From: Minisyncoccota bacterium
GTDB taxonomy: Bacteria > Patescibacteriota > Minisyncoccia > Phycocordibacterales > UBA9973
Length of the DNA stretch: 61,487 bases
NCBI GenBank assembly: GCA_041664605.1
Contig: JBAYKO010000004.1
Span: 1-61,487 of the forward strand
Direction: 5' to 3'
The number at the start of each line of letters is the position of its first letter. Position 1 is the first letter of the stretch. The translations under genes and the position numbers were made by a program. Shown piece by piece: positions 1 to 60,721 of the stretch. Under the pieces are notes generated by a model. That model saw only the letters and a list, made by a program, of their open reading frames with translations. It did not search any database and was not told where the DNA came from.

Positions 1-645
1 AGCTTCCCATGGCATATCTGGATGAATAAAATATTCAAATTCCATAATTTCAAATTCACGCATTCTATAAACAAAATCACGGGGAGTTATTTCATTTCTA
101 AAAGCTTTACCCATTTGAGCAATACCAAATGGAATTTTTGGAGAAAAAGAATCCATAATATTTTTGAAATTTATGAACATGCTTTGAGCTTCTTCTGGGC
201 GTAGGAAAGTTTTAATTGCTGTTTCATCTGATGCTCCAACTTTAGTCTCAAGCATTAAATTAAAATTTCTAGCACTACTTAATTTTCCACCACAATCAGC
301 ACATTTTTCTTTATCTTCAATTTGATCTTCTCTAAATCTTTTTTTACACTTATCACATTCAACTATTGGATCTACAAAATTTTCAACATGGCCAGATGCT
401 TCCCAAACACGAGGATGCATTAATATCGGAGTATCAATCAAATACATATTGTCACGAGATTTTACAAAATAATTAATCCATGAATCGCGAATATTGTTTT
501 TTAAAAGTGTTCCAAGTGGTCCATAATCAAAAGTCCCAGCTAACCCACCGTAAATTTCTGACCCCGGGTAAATAAAACCACGTCTTTTACAAAGCGATAC
601 TATCTTATTCATTAAATCATTTTTATTTTCTTCTTTTTTTGCCAT
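1..645 (-). CDS. glyQS: Glycyl-tRNA synthetase, homodimeric (alpha2) type, 5' part; runs off the window edge
   Basis: Not in the ORF track. Manual translation from ATG at 645 gives MAKKEENKNDLMNKIVSLCKRRGFIYPGSEIYGGLAGTFDYGPLG...LRPEEAQSMF...FGIAQMGKAFRNEITPR, which contains class II GlyRS motifs. Confidence 0.95.
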   Translation of the reverse strand, partial: MAKKEENKNDLMNKIVSLCKRRGFIYPGSEIYGGLAGTFDYGPLGTLLKNNIRDSWINYFVKSRDNMYLIDTPILMHPRVWEASGHVENFVDPIVECDKCKKRFREDQIEDKEKCADCGGKLSSARNFNLMLETKVGASDETAIKTFLRPEEAQSMFINFKNIMDSFSPKIPFGIAQMGKAFRNEITPRDFVYRMREFEIMEFEYFIHPDMPWEA

Positions 646-646
646 A

Positions 647-2581
647 TTATTGAACAACAGTTTCATTTCCTAAAACATAATTATTATCATGTATTAATTT
701 TGTGGTTAATTGAGAAGTTGTGCTTTCATTAGTTATATTTGTATAAGTATCAAAACCAGTTAATTTGGTTTGATATATCAAAACCGGCGCTGTTCCGACC
801 TGACTTAATGATGGCAATAATTCAATCTGGAAAGCAACTTCTTTTTCATCACCTGTTAGACCAGCACCTCTTTTAACATTTCCTATTTTCCAAACAACTT
901 CTCTTGTGCCACTGTCATAAGTAACATTTTCAGAAGCAGGTGTTACTCCTCCAACCCAATCAACATAGATCGGTAATAACGCCCTTGCTTCTGCTTGAGA
1001 AACTATGTTTGCTGAATTTGTAACAGACCAAACTATTGTATAAGTTGTTTTACTTCCTACTTTTGGAGGAATTGGCCCAGAATTATTTATTGGACCAGTA
1101 AAATAAAGTGACTGCCCAACAATTTTCAAATCAGAATTTATTTTTATTGTTTTACTTTGGAAATCATTAACTTCAGAAGATGCCCCGCCTTCACCAGATT
1201 GTTTTCCTTTAATACTTACTTCAACTACAATATTTGGATTTTCTATGAGCTTTGATCCAGACAAAAGTGGTAATGATGAAAAACGGAAACTCAGGCTACC
1301 TTTTTCTCCTGGGTCTATAGAAGTAAAATCACTTTCTGTATTTTTGTCCCAAATAATTTCATTCGTCGTAGAATTATAAAATCCTCCTGATGGAACAATA
1401 GATGATTCATCAATCGCATTGCCAGAGAATTTTGCAGTGACAACAACATCAGAAACCGCAACTGATAAATTATTTGACCATTTTACAACACCCCCAATTT
1501 CAGAATTACCATCAGCAGTGTAATCATTTTTATCTTCCCCGTTTATTAAAATCTGAGTCTCTAAGAATGGTTTTTCTAACTTCACTGTATGGATTAAAGA
1601 ACTATAAGGGACAGCAATCGTGGATTGATCGTTGCCTTTTTGTTCTCCTGTATAAACATGAAATGACTTCTCTTCACCAGCTGTCCCAACAACAATTCCT
1701 TTAATAGAAATATTTTTTTCAGACCCAGCCGAAAGATCTCCTAATGCCCATGTATTATTTCCGAGAGAAGTTTTTGGCTCTGCACTATCAAATTGAAAAC
1801 CTGGAGGATATATAACTTTCAAAATTACACCCTTGGCTGTTTTTTCTGCATTGAATGTTGTTTTTATTTTAAAATTAATTTCTTGACCTGGAGTCATTGA
1901 TGTTGGAGCATCAACCAAAAGAGAAAGTGGTGCAGAATTTATATTTACAGAATAAACTTTCTTTTTTACAAAAATAGCATTCGAACCTTGAAGTCTATAT
2001 TCTAAAGAAATATTTATATCTTTTATACTTCCTTGTTCACCAAATAAAACTAATTTTAAGTTTTCGTGAATTGTCTCACCCGCTTTAATTCCACCAATAG
2101 ATCTTCTCATTCTTTCATAATCTATATTTCCGTCGCTTCCTGTACCTTTGGCATATTCTACTAGTAAGTCACTTAGTTCAAGTGGTGAGCTATTTTTATT
2201 TGTTATTTCAATTTGAAGAGGTAATTCTTCCCCACCAGCAGTAAAGGCATTTCCTAAAATAGATATATCAATATTTTCATCTGAAACAGTAGTAGAACCT
2301 CTAAAAAGAGATACGCCAACAAAAATTAAAGACAAAGCAAAAAACCCAATTGAAAAGATAAAAAATTTTTTAAAAAGACTATTGTTTGAGCTACTTTTTT
2401 TCACTTCATTTACTATTTTTTGACCGGAATCTTTCCAGCTAGTTGGAACTGACAAAGAAACTTGTCTTAAAATTCCCTTTTTTCTCTTAGGTAAAATTTC
2501 TTGATTACTACTGTATAGTTTTTTATTTAAATCTTCGATTTTATCGGTTTCGTTTTGATTTTCTCCACTTAGATCAAGCAT
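647..2581 (-). CDS. Membrane-anchored hypothetical protein with repeated Ig-like (DUF11-like) beta-sandwich domains, CPR-type
   Basis: One N-terminal TM helix (FFIFSIGFFALSLIFVGVSL), then beta-rich repeats (W.LGDL..G.E, IIWD, VVWKIG). The start is supported by an extended -10 box 6 nt upstream. Confidence 0.7.
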   Translation of the reverse strand: MLDLSGENQNETDKIEDLNKKLYSSNQEILPKRKKGILRQVSLSVPTSWKDSGQKIVNEVKKSSSNNSLFKKFFIFSIGFFALSLIFVGVSLFRGSTTVSDENIDISILGNAFTAGGEELPLQIEITNKNSSPLELSDLLVEYAKGTGSDGNIDYERMRRSIGGIKAGETIHENLKLVLFGEQGSIKDINISLEYRLQGSNAIFVKKKVYSVNINSAPLSLLVDAPTSMTPGQEINFKIKTTFNAEKTAKGVILKVIYPPGFQFDSAEPKTSLGNNTWALGDLSAGSEKNISIKGIVVGTAGEEKSFHVYTGEQKGNDQSTIAVPYSSLIHTVKLEKPFLETQILINGEDKNDYTADGNSEIGGVVKWSNNLSVAVSDVVVTAKFSGNAIDESSIVPSGGFYNSTTNEIIWDKNTESDFTSIDPGEKGSLSFRFSSLPLLSGSKLIENPNIVVEVSIKGKQSGEGGASSEVNDFQSKTIKINSDLKIVGQSLYFTGPINNSGPIPPKVGSKTTYTIVWSVTNSANIVSQAEARALLPIYVDWVGGVTPASENVTYDSGTREVVWKIGNVKRGAGLTGDEKEVAFQIELLPSLSQVGTAPVLIYQTKLTGFDTYTNITNESTTSQLTTKLIHDNNYVLGNETVVQ

Positions 2582-2795: not shown

Positions 2796-3404
2796 ATGAA
2801 AAAGTTAGTTGTAATTTTAATACTATTAGTTAGCACTAATTCACTAAATGCCCAATGGGGCAATCTGACAGACAGTCTACGGACTGCTTATCAAAAAGAA
2901 ACCCATAAACTTGTGATCAAAATTGTTGACACCTTTGAAGTTAAATACTATTACCCTGCAATGGCATTAGATACCAGTTTTGCTACGGATACTTCTTTGA
3001 CTAATGATAGTATTTTTGGATTCTGTCGGGCAACAAGTGAGGAAAACACCTCAAAAAAAAGTGTGGAGATATCACTTTTAACTGTCCCCGGCTATACGGC
3101 CGACCTAACTAAGGCAGTTATAAAAGCCAAACAATTAGGATATAGACCTGCCACTATTGAAGAACTGCTTTTGATAAAAGACAAAGATTTATTATCTGTA
3201 GATAAAAATATGGAAATAATCTTAGCCCCAATGTCGGGAGCAGCAAAAATTAGTAATGAGGAAGAAGATAGAGGGCAAACAATCTACGGGATCCTATGTT
3301 TAAAACTGAATCCCGCCACAAAGAAGTTTTATGTCGATATTAAGGAAGGATGCGGATTTTACATCTTTCCTGAAGTCGCCATATGTGTAGTGAAAGAGTT
3401 GTGA
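2796..3404 (+). CDS. Secreted hypothetical protein
   Basis: Signal peptide MKKLVVILILLVSTNSLNA|Q, a GYRPATIEELL motif, and its own promoter and terminator. Confidence 0.7.
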   Translation: MKKLVVILILLVSTNSLNAQWGNLTDSLRTAYQKETHKLVIKIVDTFEVKYYYPAMALDTSFATDTSLTNDSIFGFCRATSEENTSKKSVEISLLTVPGYTADLTKAVIKAKQLGYRPATIEELLLIKDKDLLSVDKNMEIILAPMSGAAKISNEEEDRGQTIYGILCLKLNPATKKFYVDIKEGCGFYIFPEVAICVVKEL

Positions 3405-3423
3405 GCGATGACACACTCTTTCC

Positions 3424-3449
3424 AAAAACCCGGAGCAATCCGGGTTTTC
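3424..3449 (+). terminator. Intrinsic terminator
   Basis: aaaaacccgga-gcaa-tccgggtttt directly after the stop codon. Confidence 0.8.
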
Positions 3450-3455
3450 TATTTT

Positions 3456-3589
3456 CCCCCACACCCACTTTGTCATTGCTTTTTATTCTGCTAATAAAAT
3501 TTGTTAACCAATCCTATTTCTTGAGAATAATTTTAATAAAAATAGTTTTATATTGAAAAAGCAGAATAATGACAAAGTGGGTGTGGGGG
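3456..3589. repeat. MITE/REP-like element with perfect 22-bp terminal inverted repeats
   Basis: cccccacacccactttgtcatt (3456-3477) and aatgacaaagtgggtgtggggg (3568-3589), plus an inner tattctgct/agcagaata pair. Confidence 0.8.
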
Positions 3590-31154: not shown

Positions 31155-31174
31155 AATATAGATCTCAACTATTG

Positions 31175-31246
31175 GGTGCCTGGAGAGAATCGGACTCTCG
31201 ATACCTGTTCCACAAACAGGAGTTTTACCACTAAACTACAGGCACC
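31175..31246 (-). tRNA. tRNA-His(GTG)
   Basis: G-1 GTGCCTG acceptor pairs with CAGGCAC; C73; anticodon arm CCTGT-TTGTGGA-ACAGG; atypical T-loop TCCGATT. Confidence 0.9.
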
Positions 31247-31270: not shown

Positions 31271-31771
31271 TTATTTAATTTTCAAATTTTTTTTAAATCT
31301 ATTTTCTTCTTCTTTATGATGGTGCACAAGATGATGACAATTATGACAAAGCCATGCAAGATTCTTTATTAAATTATTTTTTCTATCCTTGTCTATATGA
31401 TGCACAGAAAGGACTCTTCTATCATTTATTTTACATAGCATACATATTTCAACAATCTTATTTCTTGAAAGTACGCTTCTGTAAGCATATAAACCATTTT
31501 TCCAATTAATGTGTTTCGGACCAACAAATTCCTGATTTCGCCAAAGTGTCTGGCAAGATTTACTACAAAAAAACTTTCCGCTTTTTGAAACCCTTAAGGC
31601 CTTTTTTGTTTTATAAGCTTCCTTTCCACAAACATTACATTTGATTATTTTACCAGTTCGCATTCCTTTATATTGACATTCTGAAGAACAATAAATTCCA
31701 TAACCACGTAATAACCAAGATGGTTTTGTGTAAAAGCTTTTATCACAAATTTTACATTTTACATTTGGCAC
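31271..31771 (-). CDS. HNH endonuclease with two N-terminal zinc-finger repeats
   Basis: CKIC...YCSSEC and CNVC...FCSKSC; CMLC...VHHIDKDRKNN...NLAWLCHNCHHLVH. Confidence 0.9.
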   Translation of the reverse strand: MPNVKCKICDKSFYTKPSWLLRGYGIYCSSECQYKGMRTGKIIKCNVCGKEAYKTKKALRVSKSGKFFCSKSCQTLWRNQEFVGPKHINWKNGLYAYRSVLSRNKIVEICMLCKINDRRVLSVHHIDKDRKNNLIKNLAWLCHNCHHLVHHHKEEENRFKKNLKIK

Positions 31772-31827
31772 ATTTAAATTTTATCAAAAAACAAAATTAA
31801 TGTAAACAAAATAGATTCATAACTTTT

Positions 31828-31866
31828 TCCACAAACTTCAGTGTTAACCGTTACACCATAGGCACC
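31828..31866 (-). pseudogene. 5' half of a second tRNA-His, truncated after the anticodon loop
   Basis: GGTGCCTATGGTGTAACGGTTAACACTGAAGTTTGTGGA; the required ACTTC 3' stem strand is absent. Confidence 0.85.
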
Positions 31867-31933
31867 ATATGTAAAAACAGTCTGTTGACTGCCTTTAATT
31901 TATAGCAAATTTATCGGTAATAAGTAAAGCCAA

Positions 31934-54383: not shown

Positions 54384-54414
54384 TGGCGGAGGTAAGACTA
54401 AATTATTTATAATG

Positions 54415-54501
54415 CGGAGAGGGCGAGATTCGAACTCGCGAGCCCCTTTCGAAGCTTCTAGTTTTCAAGACTAGCGCCTTCAACCACTCAGCCACCTCTC
54501 C
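54415..54501 (-). tRNA. tRNA-Ser(TGA)
   Basis: GGAGAGG/CCTCTCC acceptor, G73, CTAGT-CTTGAAA-ACTAG, long variable arm. Confidence 0.95.
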
Positions 54502-56032: not shown

Positions 56033-56116
56033 ATAAGTGGATTTTTAAATATAAAACTGTTAATCTGATAAAGATAACAGTTTTATTTTTAATATATTAA
56101 ATTAATAATATAAAAT

Positions 56117-56183
56117 GCCCTCATAGTTCAAAGCCGACGCAAAAGTCGGCTCTCCGACGCAATAGTCGTCGGAGCGGATAGAA
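56117..56183 (+). pseudogene. tRNA-Arg 5' fragment with a 43-nt D-loop insertion, truncated by the GIY-YIG gene
   Basis: GCCCTCATAGTTCAA-[insert 56132-56174]-CGGATAGAA; 24-bp direct repeat with 56449-56472. Confidence 0.85.
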
Positions 56184-56184
56184 T

Positions 56185-56454
56185 ATGAATAACCAACTAT
56201 GTGTTTATATTTTAAAAAATAAATCCAACAAATATTATGTTGGTAGTACAGACAATCTAGATCGTAGATTACATCAGCACAAAATGGGATATACTCAAAC
56301 AACTCGAAACATGAAATCTTTTCAATTAGTTTTAAAACAAGATTATTCTTCTTTAGAAATGGCAAGAAAAATAGAGAGAAAAATTAAAAAATTAAAAAGA
56401 AAAGATTATATTGAAAAAATGATTAAAGAAGGTTATATTAAATTGGTTATATAA
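56185..56454 (+). CDS. Small stand-alone GIY-YIG nuclease
   Basis: CVYILKN...YYVGSTDNLDRRLHQH...ARKIERKIKK.K. Confidence 0.92.
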   Translation: MNNQLCVYILKNKSNKYYVGSTDNLDRRLHQHKMGYTQTTRNMKSFQLVLKQDYSSLEMARKIERKIKKLKRKDYIEKMIKEGYIKLVI

Positions 56455-56457
56455 AAT

Positions 56458-56532
56458 GCCCTCATAGTTCAACGGATAGAACGTAACTTTGCGGAAGTTA
56501 TGATCCAGGTTCGATTCCTGGTGAGGGCACCA
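56458..56532 (+). tRNA. tRNA-Arg(GCG)
   Basis: GCCCTCA/TGAGGGC-A-CCA, TAACT-TTGCGGA-AGTTA, CCAGG-TTCGATT-CCTGG. Confidence 0.93.
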
Positions 56533-56535
56533 TAA

Positions 56536-56644
56536 ATAGTTCAAAGCCGACGCAACAGTCGGCTCTCCGACACCATGGTCGTCGGAGTGGATAGAACGTA
56601 ACTTTGCGGAAGTTATGATGTAGGTTCGATTCCTACCGAGAGGA
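56536..56644 (+). pseudogene. tRNA-Arg(GCG)-like remnant lacking the 5' acceptor strand, with a 43-nt D-loop insertion
   Basis: ATAGTTCAA-[insert 56545-56587]-TGGATAGAAC, identical anticodon arm, different T arm and 3' end CGAGAGG with no pairing partner. Confidence 0.8.
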
Positions 56645-56671
56645 CAATAATGTAATGATATCATCAGTATC

Positions 56672-60566: not shown

Positions 60567-60720
60567 TCCGCTCATAGCTGTTTTGGTAGGTCGAAAGCCA
60601 AATAGGCAAAAGCAAGTTATGTTTAAAAATTAAATAAAACACATTCGATCATATGCTGTTTTGGTAGGTCGATAACCCAAGATAAAAATAGTAGTAATTT
60701 ACAAAATTAAATAAAATACA
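60567..60720 (+). repeat. Two degenerate 77-nt tandem units upstream of tRNA-Lys, starting like the tRNA
   Basis: Unit starts at 60567 and 60644, tRNA at 60721; shared gctgttttggtaggtcga and aaaattaaataaaa(c/t)aca. Confidence 0.75.
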
Positions 60721-60721
60721 T

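Follow-up and report, generated by a model that had tools for sequence, protein, structure and literature searches.

A probable homing-type GIY-YIG element with paired hairpins and a replacement tRNA in a tRNA-Arg gene of a Minisyncoccota bacterium

SegB belongs to a modular class of GIY-YIG homing endonucleases with a separate DNA-binding region. In phage T4 it is a free-standing enzyme encoded within a cluster of tRNA genes; its site includes the T-psi-C stem-loop, and it drives the inheritance of its own gene together with neighbouring tRNA genes (PMC2330249). Judged by analogy, SegB is the nearest characterised relative, in its logic, of the locus examined here, a GIY-YIG gene lodged between pieces of tRNA-Arg in a contig of a Minisyncoccota bacterium (Patescibacteriota; JBAYKO010000004.1, positions 1 to 61,487; this whole 61-kb stretch, with 30% G+C, is referred to as the window). 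The locus is probably a homing-type selfish element, made up of the GIY-YIG gene and paired hairpins, that splits the resident tRNA-Arg gene and restores it with a tRNA that it carries. The mobility of the element is well supported; the insertion is polymorphic among relatives, occurs at a fixed point, brings a replacement tRNA, is bounded by hairpins and leaves a series of decay products.

Like SegB, the GIY-YIG gene is free-standing and lies among tRNA genes. Unlike SegB, which is phage-borne and lies between genes, it is chromosomal, encodes a bare UPF0213-type domain of 89 amino acids (aa) and sits inside a tRNA gene, between nucleotides (nt) 15 and 16; the resident gene is left as split halves with conserved hairpin boundaries. 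A second parallel comes from fungal mitochondria, in which free-standing endonuclease open reading frames (ORFs) insert at the end of a gene and bring a replacement part (for example at Allomyces atp6). The present nuclease gene likewise carries a substitute for what it disrupts, and the exact equivalent is found at a related locus, L043, where the cassette lies at the fusA 3′ end and the C-terminal coding region is duplicated. No paper on this arrangement of GIY-YIG gene, tRNA and hairpins was found in the literature searched, outside which most subscription journals lie; an earlier description is possible.

The locus spans positions 56093–56646, and all its features are on the plus strand. 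At its left end (56093–56116) an older GIY-YIG gene has left a relic of its 3′ end, with spacer, which resembles 56434–56457, i.e. the last codons (GYIKLVI*) and spacer of the present gene. Promoter-like hexamers (TTAATA-16-TAAAAT, 56089–56116) end directly before the tRNA 5′ fragment that this relic abuts on its upstream side. This fragment, copy 1 (56117–56131), corresponds to tRNA-Arg nt 1–15, is identical to the intact gene at 15/15 positions and comprises the acceptor 5′ strand, nt 8–9, the D-stem 5′ strand and the first two D-loop bases. The left double hairpin follows (DH-L; 43 nt, 56132–56174), which reads AGCCGAC-gcaaaa-GTCGGCT and then CTCCGACg-caatagt-cGTCGGAG. Next come tRNA nt 16–24 (cggatagaa, 56175–56183), after which tRNA homology stops; 8–10 nt of tRNA are likewise kept after the double hairpin (DH) at other loci. 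This purine-rich stretch lies 2 nt before the ATG of the GIY-YIG gene and, to judge from its composition and position, may act as its ribosome-binding site. The nuclease gene itself (56185–56454) encodes the single-domain protein of 89 aa, of UPF0213/YhbQ (Slx1-like) type.

Directly downstream lies an intact tRNA-Arg(GCG) gene (56458–56532), called by ARAGORN and scoring 67.8 bits against the Rfam tRNA model, with acceptor strands gccctca/tgagggc, T stem ccagg/cctgg and an encoded CCA. It is followed by a second remnant, copy 3 (56536–56646), which opens with tRNA nt 7–15 (atagttcaa, 56536–56544) and has no 5′ acceptor strand; remnants with the same starting point, nt 7, occur in L007, L054, L203, L288 and L294. 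The right double hairpin (DH-R; 43 nt, 56545–56587) is a sister of DH-L, with 39/43 identity including the loops. The rest of copy 3 (56588–56646) corresponds to tRNA-Arg(GCG) nt 16–76, with T stem gtagg/cctac and 3′ end cgagaggaca. Copy 3 thus has the same anticodon arm as the intact gene and a different T stem and 3′ end; its Rfam tRNA score of 27.6 bits is below the gathering score of 29, and the match is truncated (model positions 5–66).

These pieces agree with a preliminary description of the same DNA, which had listed a 5′ fragment, the GIY-YIG gene, an intact tRNA-Arg(GCG) and a second remnant; all four are present. The 24-bp direct repeat that it placed around the nuclease is exact, and it extends to 39 nt at 92% identity (56093–56131 versus 56434–56472); the GIY-YIG gene is the sole ORF between the bracketing repeats. 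The near-identical 43-nt double hairpin does occur at the same D-loop position in both defective copies and is absent from the functional one. Each hairpin-bearing unit forms one arm of a 61-nt repeat at 92% identity (56123–56183 versus 56536–56596; 9 + 43 + 9 nt), whose left arm ends with cggatagaa, and the 3′ parts of the two tRNAs are repeats of each other over 62 nt at 87%. Only two sites in the 61 kb match the hairpin motif, against an expectation of 0.00 (100 shuffles). When folded as DNA, DH-L reaches −16.2 kcal/mol (z = −6.0) and DH-R −13.7 kcal/mol (z = −4.3), and none of 200 shuffles is as stable. The observation is real and lies far above what chance would give. Repeats can be collapsed or made chimeric in short-read metagenome assemblies, so that repeated tRNA sequences might have been mis-assembled; since the same ordered architecture recurs, with sequence differences specific to each locus, in over 25 independent assemblies that come from different projects and assemblers, the probability of this is negligible.

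The insert is clean, has tRNA sequence on both sides and lies in the D-loop, and non-canonical introns occur at such tRNA positions in archaea. An intron-like insert, or split or permuted tRNA halves joined at the RNA level, would explain these features. However, copy 1 goes no further than nt 24 and copy 3 is without its 5′ acceptor strand. Only 4/7 positions pair between the acceptor strands of the two, and the gene that separates them is intact and uninterrupted. Searches of Rfam at gathering and permissive thresholds matched the intact tRNA and the truncated remnant only, and nothing matched the hairpin insert, whose length varies from 39 to 72 nt with nested hairpins. A group I intron, an archaeal bulge-helix-bulge intron and a split tRNA were accordingly rejected, neither interrupted copy being complete, and an RNA-level explanation of any kind is hardly credible.

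Comparison with relatives shows that an insertion has taken place here. The upstream neighbour, a 157-aa ORF ending in ..LGF, led to syntenic loci in related Nomurabacteria/Paceibacteria genomes. Eight of them (L207, L208, L209, L211, L213, L214, L215 and L216) have an empty site, in which this ORF is followed by 50–80 nt or one extra ORF and then by tRNA-Arg(GCG) alone, the GIY-YIG gene, the hairpins and the fragments all being absent; one of these, L213, has the upstream spacer in common with the window. The syntenic sites of the window, L204 and L294 are filled. The preliminary description had pointed to empty sites as a check and to an identical locus in relatives lacking the nuclease as its refutation; the empty sites exist, and relatives that lack the nuclease differ from the window at exactly this place.

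The empty sites also help to identify the resident tRNA. Over its 3′ part, copy 3 matches the intact tRNA-Arg genes of L204 (syntenic, filled) and L213 (empty site) at 55/58 positions, whereas the corresponding part of the window’s own intact gene matches these relatives at 51/58 and copy 3 at 50/59; the 3′ end of copy 3, cgagaggaca, is identical in L213 and L294. Copy 3 is closer to the tRNA of the relatives than to the intact gene beside it and therefore represents the 3′ part of the former resident. The intact tRNA-Arg(GCG) is the functional gene, probably an immigrant allele that came with the cassette. The copies are consequently not the simple duplicates that they had first been taken for: copy 3 is the old resident’s 3′ two-thirds and the intact gene is the incoming allele. 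Judged from their matching stems and loops, DH-L and DH-R are sister copies that bound the cassette, not separate inserts into dead copies. At three further loci both halves of the resident can be recognised. The 5′ fragment pairs with the 3′ end of the downstream remnant at 7/7 positions in L203 (6/7 with the intact gene), at 7/7 in L288 (5/7) and at 6/7 in L294 (5/7); by this pairing, the pieces that abut the hairpins in L203, L288 and L294 are the halves of one former gene split at nt 15/16. A foreign tRNA allele accompanies the GIY-YIG gene in the window, L203, L288 and L294, which fits co-conversion and also transposition.

The same design recurs widely. Homologues of the GIY-YIG protein were collected from 79 genome loci and 80 metagenome loci, and in 71 of the 79 genome loci, from Patescibacteria and Bacteroidota, a same-strand tRNA gene adjoins the nuclease gene. 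In total, well over a hundred loci in two phyla show the design, among them loci of cultured Pedobacter, Algoriphagus, Belliella and Mucilaginibacter. About 30 Patescibacteria loci have the same architecture as the window, in the order 5′ fragment, hairpins, GIY-YIG gene, intact tRNA, and in them the DH comes immediately behind tRNA nt 15. At 13 distinct Patescibacteria loci other than the window (16 locus records, L200–202 and L204–205 being repeat recoveries), an exact repeat of nt 1–15 of the intact tRNA lies upstream, and the first hairpin begins at nt 16; this holds although the 15-mers vary from genome to genome and include one from tRNA-Thr. All homologues that are at least 60% identical to the window protein lie at tRNA-Arg isoacceptors, and this restriction fits recognition of a shared Arg D-arm. 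Complete forms, with both hairpin pairs, are found in the window, L007, L203, L288, L294 and L304, and a partial one in L054. Decay of the kind expected of selfish DNA is seen as a series of GIY-YIG genes that are truncated, internally deleted or reduced to relics, in L003, L054, L294 (where a relic lies at 865–906, a place equivalent to that of the window’s) and the window.

The intact tRNA appears to have its own promoter inside the nuclease gene. A sigma-70-like sequence, TTGAAA-17-TATATT (56411–56439, plus strand), lies within the last GIY-YIG codons, 18 nt upstream of the tRNA; it is the top promoter-like match of the region (10/12 positions) and, on this basis, is likely to be the tRNA promoter. 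A match of at least 9/12 precedes the tRNA in 24 of 29 Patescibacteria loci, 15–21 nt upstream in most, and these matches mostly consist of the same hexamer pair as in the window, encoded by the conserved IEK...GYI codons. If the promoter is embedded there, it is understandable that in decayed elements only the C-terminal codons survive beside the tRNA.

In Bacteroidota the order differs: an intact tRNA is followed by a terminator, the GIY-YIG gene and a tRNA copy without the 5′ acceptor strand, in which tcCCGAt/atCGGga stands in place of the anticodon stem. Tandem arrays there comprise up to four units (L034). Arrays of hairpin-bearing tRNA pseudo-copies with a period of about 65–97 nt, upstream or downstream of the GIY-YIG gene, were noticed in L022 (473–753), L026 (2540–2830) and L049 (2557–2931); ARAGORN calls some of these tRNA-Arg or a tRNA with a 4-base anticodon. 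Two further observations concern Patescibacteria. The genome of L007, which has a GIY-YIG homologue at tRNA-Arg, has a second, distant one (33% identity) directly upstream of tRNA-Ser(TGA) (450–728, minus strand); the window’s tRNA-Ser(TGA) (54414–54501) has no such gene. In L013 (Portnoybacteria; 3255–3571), ARAGORN misses the tRNA downstream of the GIY-YIG gene, in which a long structured insert, perhaps a group I intron, breaks the sequence behind the anticodon-loop region.

The tight, same-strand and widespread association with tRNA genes could also indicate a non-selfish host factor, co-transcribed with tRNA-Arg and active in tRNA or RNA processing or in regulation, with the fragments as by-products of local tandem duplication. 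A prokaryotic Slx1-like GIY-YIG domain fused to a TrmH-type tRNA methyltransferase is indeed on record (PMC1564403). Such a role is improbable in view of the eight syntenic relatives that have the same tRNA and lack the gene, the truncated and relic copies, the tandem arrays, the occurrence at many different tRNAs and even at fusA, and the incoming tRNA allele that accompanies the gene.

Among 195 hairpin core pairs (CCGAY...RTCGG) in GIY-YIG loci, positions 1 and 2 outside the core are Watson–Crick paired in 79–81% and position 3 in 15%; this drop defines a stem of exactly 7 bp. The outer pairs covary (TC/GA 94, AG/CT 18, CC/GG 16, CT/AG 15 and TT/AA 3). Loops range from 3 to more than 60 nt, and some contain nested hairpins. 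That the stem stays constant while loop length varies freely suggests that the folded form matters, as single-stranded or extruded DNA or as RNA, rather than a duplex inverted repeat of fixed spacing. In the 27 distinct DHs at GIY-YIG loci, the first hairpin starts with NNCCGAC|G in 24 and the second ends with C|GTCGGNN in all 27, so that the pair is reverse-complement symmetric at consensus level (CCGACG...CGTCGG); in every tRNA-Arg context the flanks are ..ttcaa|DH|yggatag.

These hairpins are linked to the nuclease in two ways. Firstly, a 7-bp CCGAY hairpin occurs within 350 nt of the GIY-YIG gene at most loci in both phyla, and is at least about tenfold rarer elsewhere in the same loci, where 21 were counted in 408 kb away from the gene. 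Secondly, the fifth core base covaries with the protein clade: loci whose proteins are at least 55% identical to the window’s (33 loci) have CCGAC 27 times and CCGAT never, whereas those below 47% identity (106 loci) have CCGAC 12, CCGAT 55 and CCGAA 11 times. Clade covariation, rarity away from the gene and the sister DHs imply that hairpins and nuclease gene travel together. The link between hairpin and nuclease that had been suggested at the outset is borne out in this sense, and the nuclease may be what mobilises the hairpin.

Double hairpins also occur alone. A collection-wide scan for the DH pattern gave mostly chance matches in high-G+C Actinobacteria, and the matches in Patescibacteria alone are informative. 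Among the matches listed, DHs in other Patescibacteria are found with no GIY-YIG gene within the 8 kb examined, some of them in spacers and others in frame inside long ORFs: at the rplL hinge, in a SecA-like ORF of 881 aa and in ORFs of 807, 582, 269 and 239 aa (L080 1024–1065, L085 2075–2133, L110 1701–1770, L125 4836–4882, L136 1914–1955 and L159 1348–1413). The in-frame copies are usually translated as ..G(V/T/E)PT.. peptides, and one solo DH is flanked by an 8-nt direct repeat (L121). In L155, a tRNA-Lys 5′ fragment and a DH stand directly before the intact tRNA, and the nuclease gene is absent. By analogy, the hairpin pair thus also behaves as a small palindromic insert of the kinds described below.

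It is conceivable, though unlikely, that the DH is an independent palindrome, similar to a miniature inverted-repeat transposable element or a repetitive extragenic palindrome (REP), that lands on its own, and that the GIY-YIG enzyme is an ordinary, sequence-specific nuclease homing to the tRNA-Arg D-arm, without any functional relation to it. The solo copies and L155 would be expected on these grounds, and the hairpins nested in hairpin loops suggest autonomous proliferation. Coincidence of two separate agents is hard to reconcile with a DH at the same nt 15/16 beside a GIY-YIG gene in at least 13 independent loci, with sister copies, loops included, at both ends of one locus, with the covariation and enrichment just described, and with a functional tRNA copy that never has the hairpin.

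Several families of short palindromes offer comparisons. Mitochondrial double-hairpin elements (DHEs; Paquin et al. 2000, as cited in PMC4618339 and PMC7218506) consist of two adjacent GC-rich stem-loops in an AT-rich genome and are regarded as mobile and as linked to rearrangements; the citing papers mention no demonstrated link between a mitochondrial double hairpin and a specific nuclease. The window’s DHs are likewise two adjacent GC-rich stem-loops in AT-rich DNA, a likeness of structural description, and a common origin with the fungal elements is unlikely. Unlike the mitochondrial elements, which are organellar and have other sequences, the hairpins here are tied physically and phylogenetically to one nuclease family, and their target is the tRNA D-loop.

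In the REP/REPIN systems of REP-associated tyrosine transposases (RAYTs), short palindromic hairpins flank the gene of the presumed mobilising enzyme, and there are many solo copies, some within genes; REPs tagged with CGTC have no known transposase, and their stems of 8–9 bp start with A/T pairs (PMC3733652, PMC3116915). The present hairpins, too, flank an enzyme gene and occur solo, some of them in genes, and to this extent the label ‘REP-like’ used in the preliminary description is apt as an analogy. It does not extend further: the enzyme is a GIY-YIG protein and not an HUH/Y1 RAYT, the 7-bp CCGAY stem has a different sequence, and there is no unpaired GTAG or CGTC tag. The hairpins do contain CGTC, and identity with the CGTC-tagged REPs was considered; it was rejected because stem length, composition and tag position differ. 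Rickettsia palindromic elements (RPEs) are in-frame inserts of about 100–150 bp in Rickettsia genes and are not known to be associated with a nuclease gene. The solo DHs resemble RPEs (mentioned in PMC3733652) in lying in frame in essential genes of other Patescibacteria, such as rplL, the SecA-like ORF and the 807-aa ORF; the DHs are shorter and differ in sequence, and their family is associated with a nuclease gene.

The GIY-YIG protein itself is small. Its match to Pfam PF01541 covers residues 6–73 (51.7 bits against a cut-off of 22.6; E = 1.1e-13), and the nearest solved structures by sequence are 1ZG2 (UPF0213 BH0048, E = 1.1e-6), 1YWL (EF2693, E = 0.017) and Slx1 (E = 0.02–0.67). An AlphaFold2 model has a predicted local distance difference test score of 87 and the topology beta-beta-alpha-alpha-beta-alpha-alpha; its top Foldseek matches are 1ZG2, 1YWL, the UvrC N-terminal domain and the I-TevI catalytic domain. 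Across 27 homologues (55–83% identity), Y18, G20, R27, R28, H32 and E64 are invariant and Y8 is nearly so (at least 90%); a basic C-terminal segment, KRKDYIEK, is invariant almost throughout. The GIY-YIG catalytic set (two Tyr in the first two strands, Arg and Glu) is conserved, with the catalytic role of each residue assigned by analogy. The 89 aa comprise the catalytic domain and one basic C-terminal helix, so the protein is a bare GIY-YIG catalytic domain and is probably active. With a single domain and its closest relatives in UPF0213, it is assigned by sequence to the UPF0213/YhbQ-type (Slx1-like) clade. The best sequence and fold matches are to UPF0213/YhbQ (COG2827) and, weakly, to Slx1. 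The latter is a structure-specific nuclease with an additional RING-type domain and the partner Slx4; by analogy, its structure specificity fits recognition of a hairpin or junction here. No functional description of the UPF0213/YhbQ (COG2827) family was found in the literature searched, which excludes most subscription journals.

From these features a mode of action can be proposed. In its complete form, the element consists of a DH, about 9 nt of D-loop and D-stem, the mini GIY-YIG gene, a complete tRNA, about 9 nt of D-arm and a second DH. Placed at nt 15/16, it splits the resident gene so that the 5′ 15-mer lies at the left DH and the 3′ two-thirds at the right DH, and the element’s own tRNA would keep the cell viable. 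The nuclease would break the D-arm region of an uninvaded tRNA-Arg gene, or a hairpin-bearing site, and repair of the break from a filled allele would copy the cassette in, i.e. homing. The common short form (5′ 15-mer, DH, 9 nt, GIY-YIG gene, intact tRNA) could be a direct product of repair or could arise by deletion across the 62-nt repeat formed by the intact tRNA and the downstream remnant; whether the complete or the short product is formed would be set by which internal copy of the D-arm half the broken ends pair with. The nearly symmetric 9-nt tRNA flanks fit symmetric cuts around an extruded structure and D-arm halves acting as microhomology alike. The promoter of the resident tRNA would drive the GIY-YIG gene, whose 5′ leader would consist of the tRNA 5′ fragment and the DH, and the downstream tRNA would be served by the promoter in the last GIY-YIG codons. 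The 7-bp CCGAC hairpins would be the cognate structured ends of the element, recognised when folded, and would also be able to persist or spread as solo copies. Overall, the element is best classed as a variant of the free-standing homing-endonuclease elements, and its hairpin module may make it more than that.

The DHs at both ends of the complete forms and their reverse-complement symmetry resemble terminal repeats, and the exact 24-nt direct repeat around the nuclease gene is reminiscent of attL and attR; in L043, TCCCGAT and ATCGGGA arms flank the entire GIY-YIG gene. A cut-and-paste or circle-forming transposon or integrative element, bounded by DHs and using a 15–24-nt repeat at the tRNA 5′ region as its att site, would move without homing. 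This alternative is rather unlikely. There is no recombinase or transposase of a known family within the 341-bp unit, neither an excised circle nor a clean excision footprint was seen, and a crossover in the tRNA 5′ part would not put a DH before the resident’s 3′ part. No prokaryotic GIY-YIG transposase is known. An integrase-borne island at a tRNA gene, also considered, was rejected: a duplicated tRNA part is present (24–39 nt), but there is no integrase, and the sole ORF is the GIY-YIG gene.

Homing of a hairpin-bounded cassette with its own tRNA is favoured over these alternatives, and several observations weigh against it. Characterised GIY-YIG homing enzymes of the I-TevI/SegB type have a separate DNA-binding domain, and this protein does not. 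In Bacteroidota, the hairpin replaces the anticodon stem yet keeps the anticodon loop, an outcome that simple insertion does not account for. In the restored tRNA the nt 15/16 site is intact, and the element would somehow have to spare it from its own nuclease. The solo DHs suggest that spread of the hairpin may not need a linked nuclease. No relative turned up when viral contigs were scanned with the protein alignment, which leaves a phage vector unsupported. Finally, copy 1 of the window belongs to the incoming allele (24 nt identical; 7/7 acceptor pairing) and, with only 4/7 pairing to copy 3, does not match the old resident, so that an extra conversion step or an extra round of invasion has to be assumed. 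Together with the upstream relic of a GIY-YIG C-terminus, this identity points to at least two rounds of invasion, to gene conversion between the 39-nt repeats, or to both.

Other tRNA genes of the window have comparable surroundings; upstream fragments are present at three of its seven tRNA genes. On the minus strand, an HNH ORF (31283–31780) lies between a diverged tRNA-His 5′ fragment that ends just after the anticodon (approximately 31810–31870) and an intact tRNA-His (31174–31245). Homologues of this HNH protein (43–67% identity) are found directly upstream of tRNA-His(GTG), on the same strand and at a distance of 5–50 nt, in 66 of 68 Patescibacteria genomes (L217–L284). The tRNA-Arg locus had been thought to repeat the logic of this one. 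The layout of a nuclease gene and a tRNA as a cassette is indeed common to both, but no CCGAC hairpins occur at the HNH/tRNA-His loci, and a tRNA-His 5′ fragment, sought upstream of the HNH homologues in 65 loci, is recognisable in two or three, so that this part of the parallel has mostly decayed. The HNH/tRNA-His linkage is so constant that a host function is possible there.

Upstream of tRNA-Lys(TTT), at 60568–60721, there are two tandem degenerate copies of the tRNA-Lys 5′ end with its upstream spacer. The 5′-end copies, ccgctcatagct at 60568–60579 and a degenerate one at about 60645–60656, are each followed by gttttggtaggtcga, and no ORF lies between them; they resemble what a third tRNA-targeting element might leave after decay. 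Structured and often G+C-rich blocks of 100–200 nt were observed on the downstream side of many genes for tRNA-Arg and tRNA-Thr, at filled and empty sites alike (L207 2600–2860, L209 2595–2750, L005 3330–3530, L006 3340–3520, L009 1260–1455 and L216 2535–2680). They are followed by a repeat of the last 10–20 nt of the tRNA (..ccttcgagggcgcaaa in L005, ..gatccctgccgggcgcacca in L216), some contain inverted T-arm-like pieces, and they may represent a different small element that uses the tRNA 3′ end.

The single-copy essential tRNA genes of the reduced Patescibacteria genomes thus appear as recurrent landing sites for nuclease cassettes that bring a replacement tRNA. Since the cassettes carry such a tRNA, tRNA alleles become horizontally exchangeable, and the tRNA fragments found there record past invasions rather than errors of assembly. 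Programs that call genes or scan for tRNAs will mis-annotate such loci, as ARAGORN does with the hairpin-bearing pseudo-copies of Bacteroidota. A conserved DNA hairpin tied to a nuclease gene across two phyla provides a handle on how short GC-rich palindromes spread, and the tRNA-linked element suggests a concrete, testable role for the widespread UPF0213/YhbQ-like GIY-YIG family. A broader and distinctly tentative proposal is that UPF0213-type mini GIY-YIG proteins are structure-specific nucleases acting on their own 7-bp CCGAY hairpins, and that they define an unrecognised class of prokaryotic mobile elements; its autonomous form would be a hairpin-bounded nuclease gene in the tRNA gene that it repairs, and its non-autonomous form a solo single or double hairpin spreading into spacers and, in frame, into essential genes. 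If true, this would assign a function to a large orphan protein family and would provide a testable model for the movement of mitochondrial DHEs, RPE-like inserts and REPs without a transposase.

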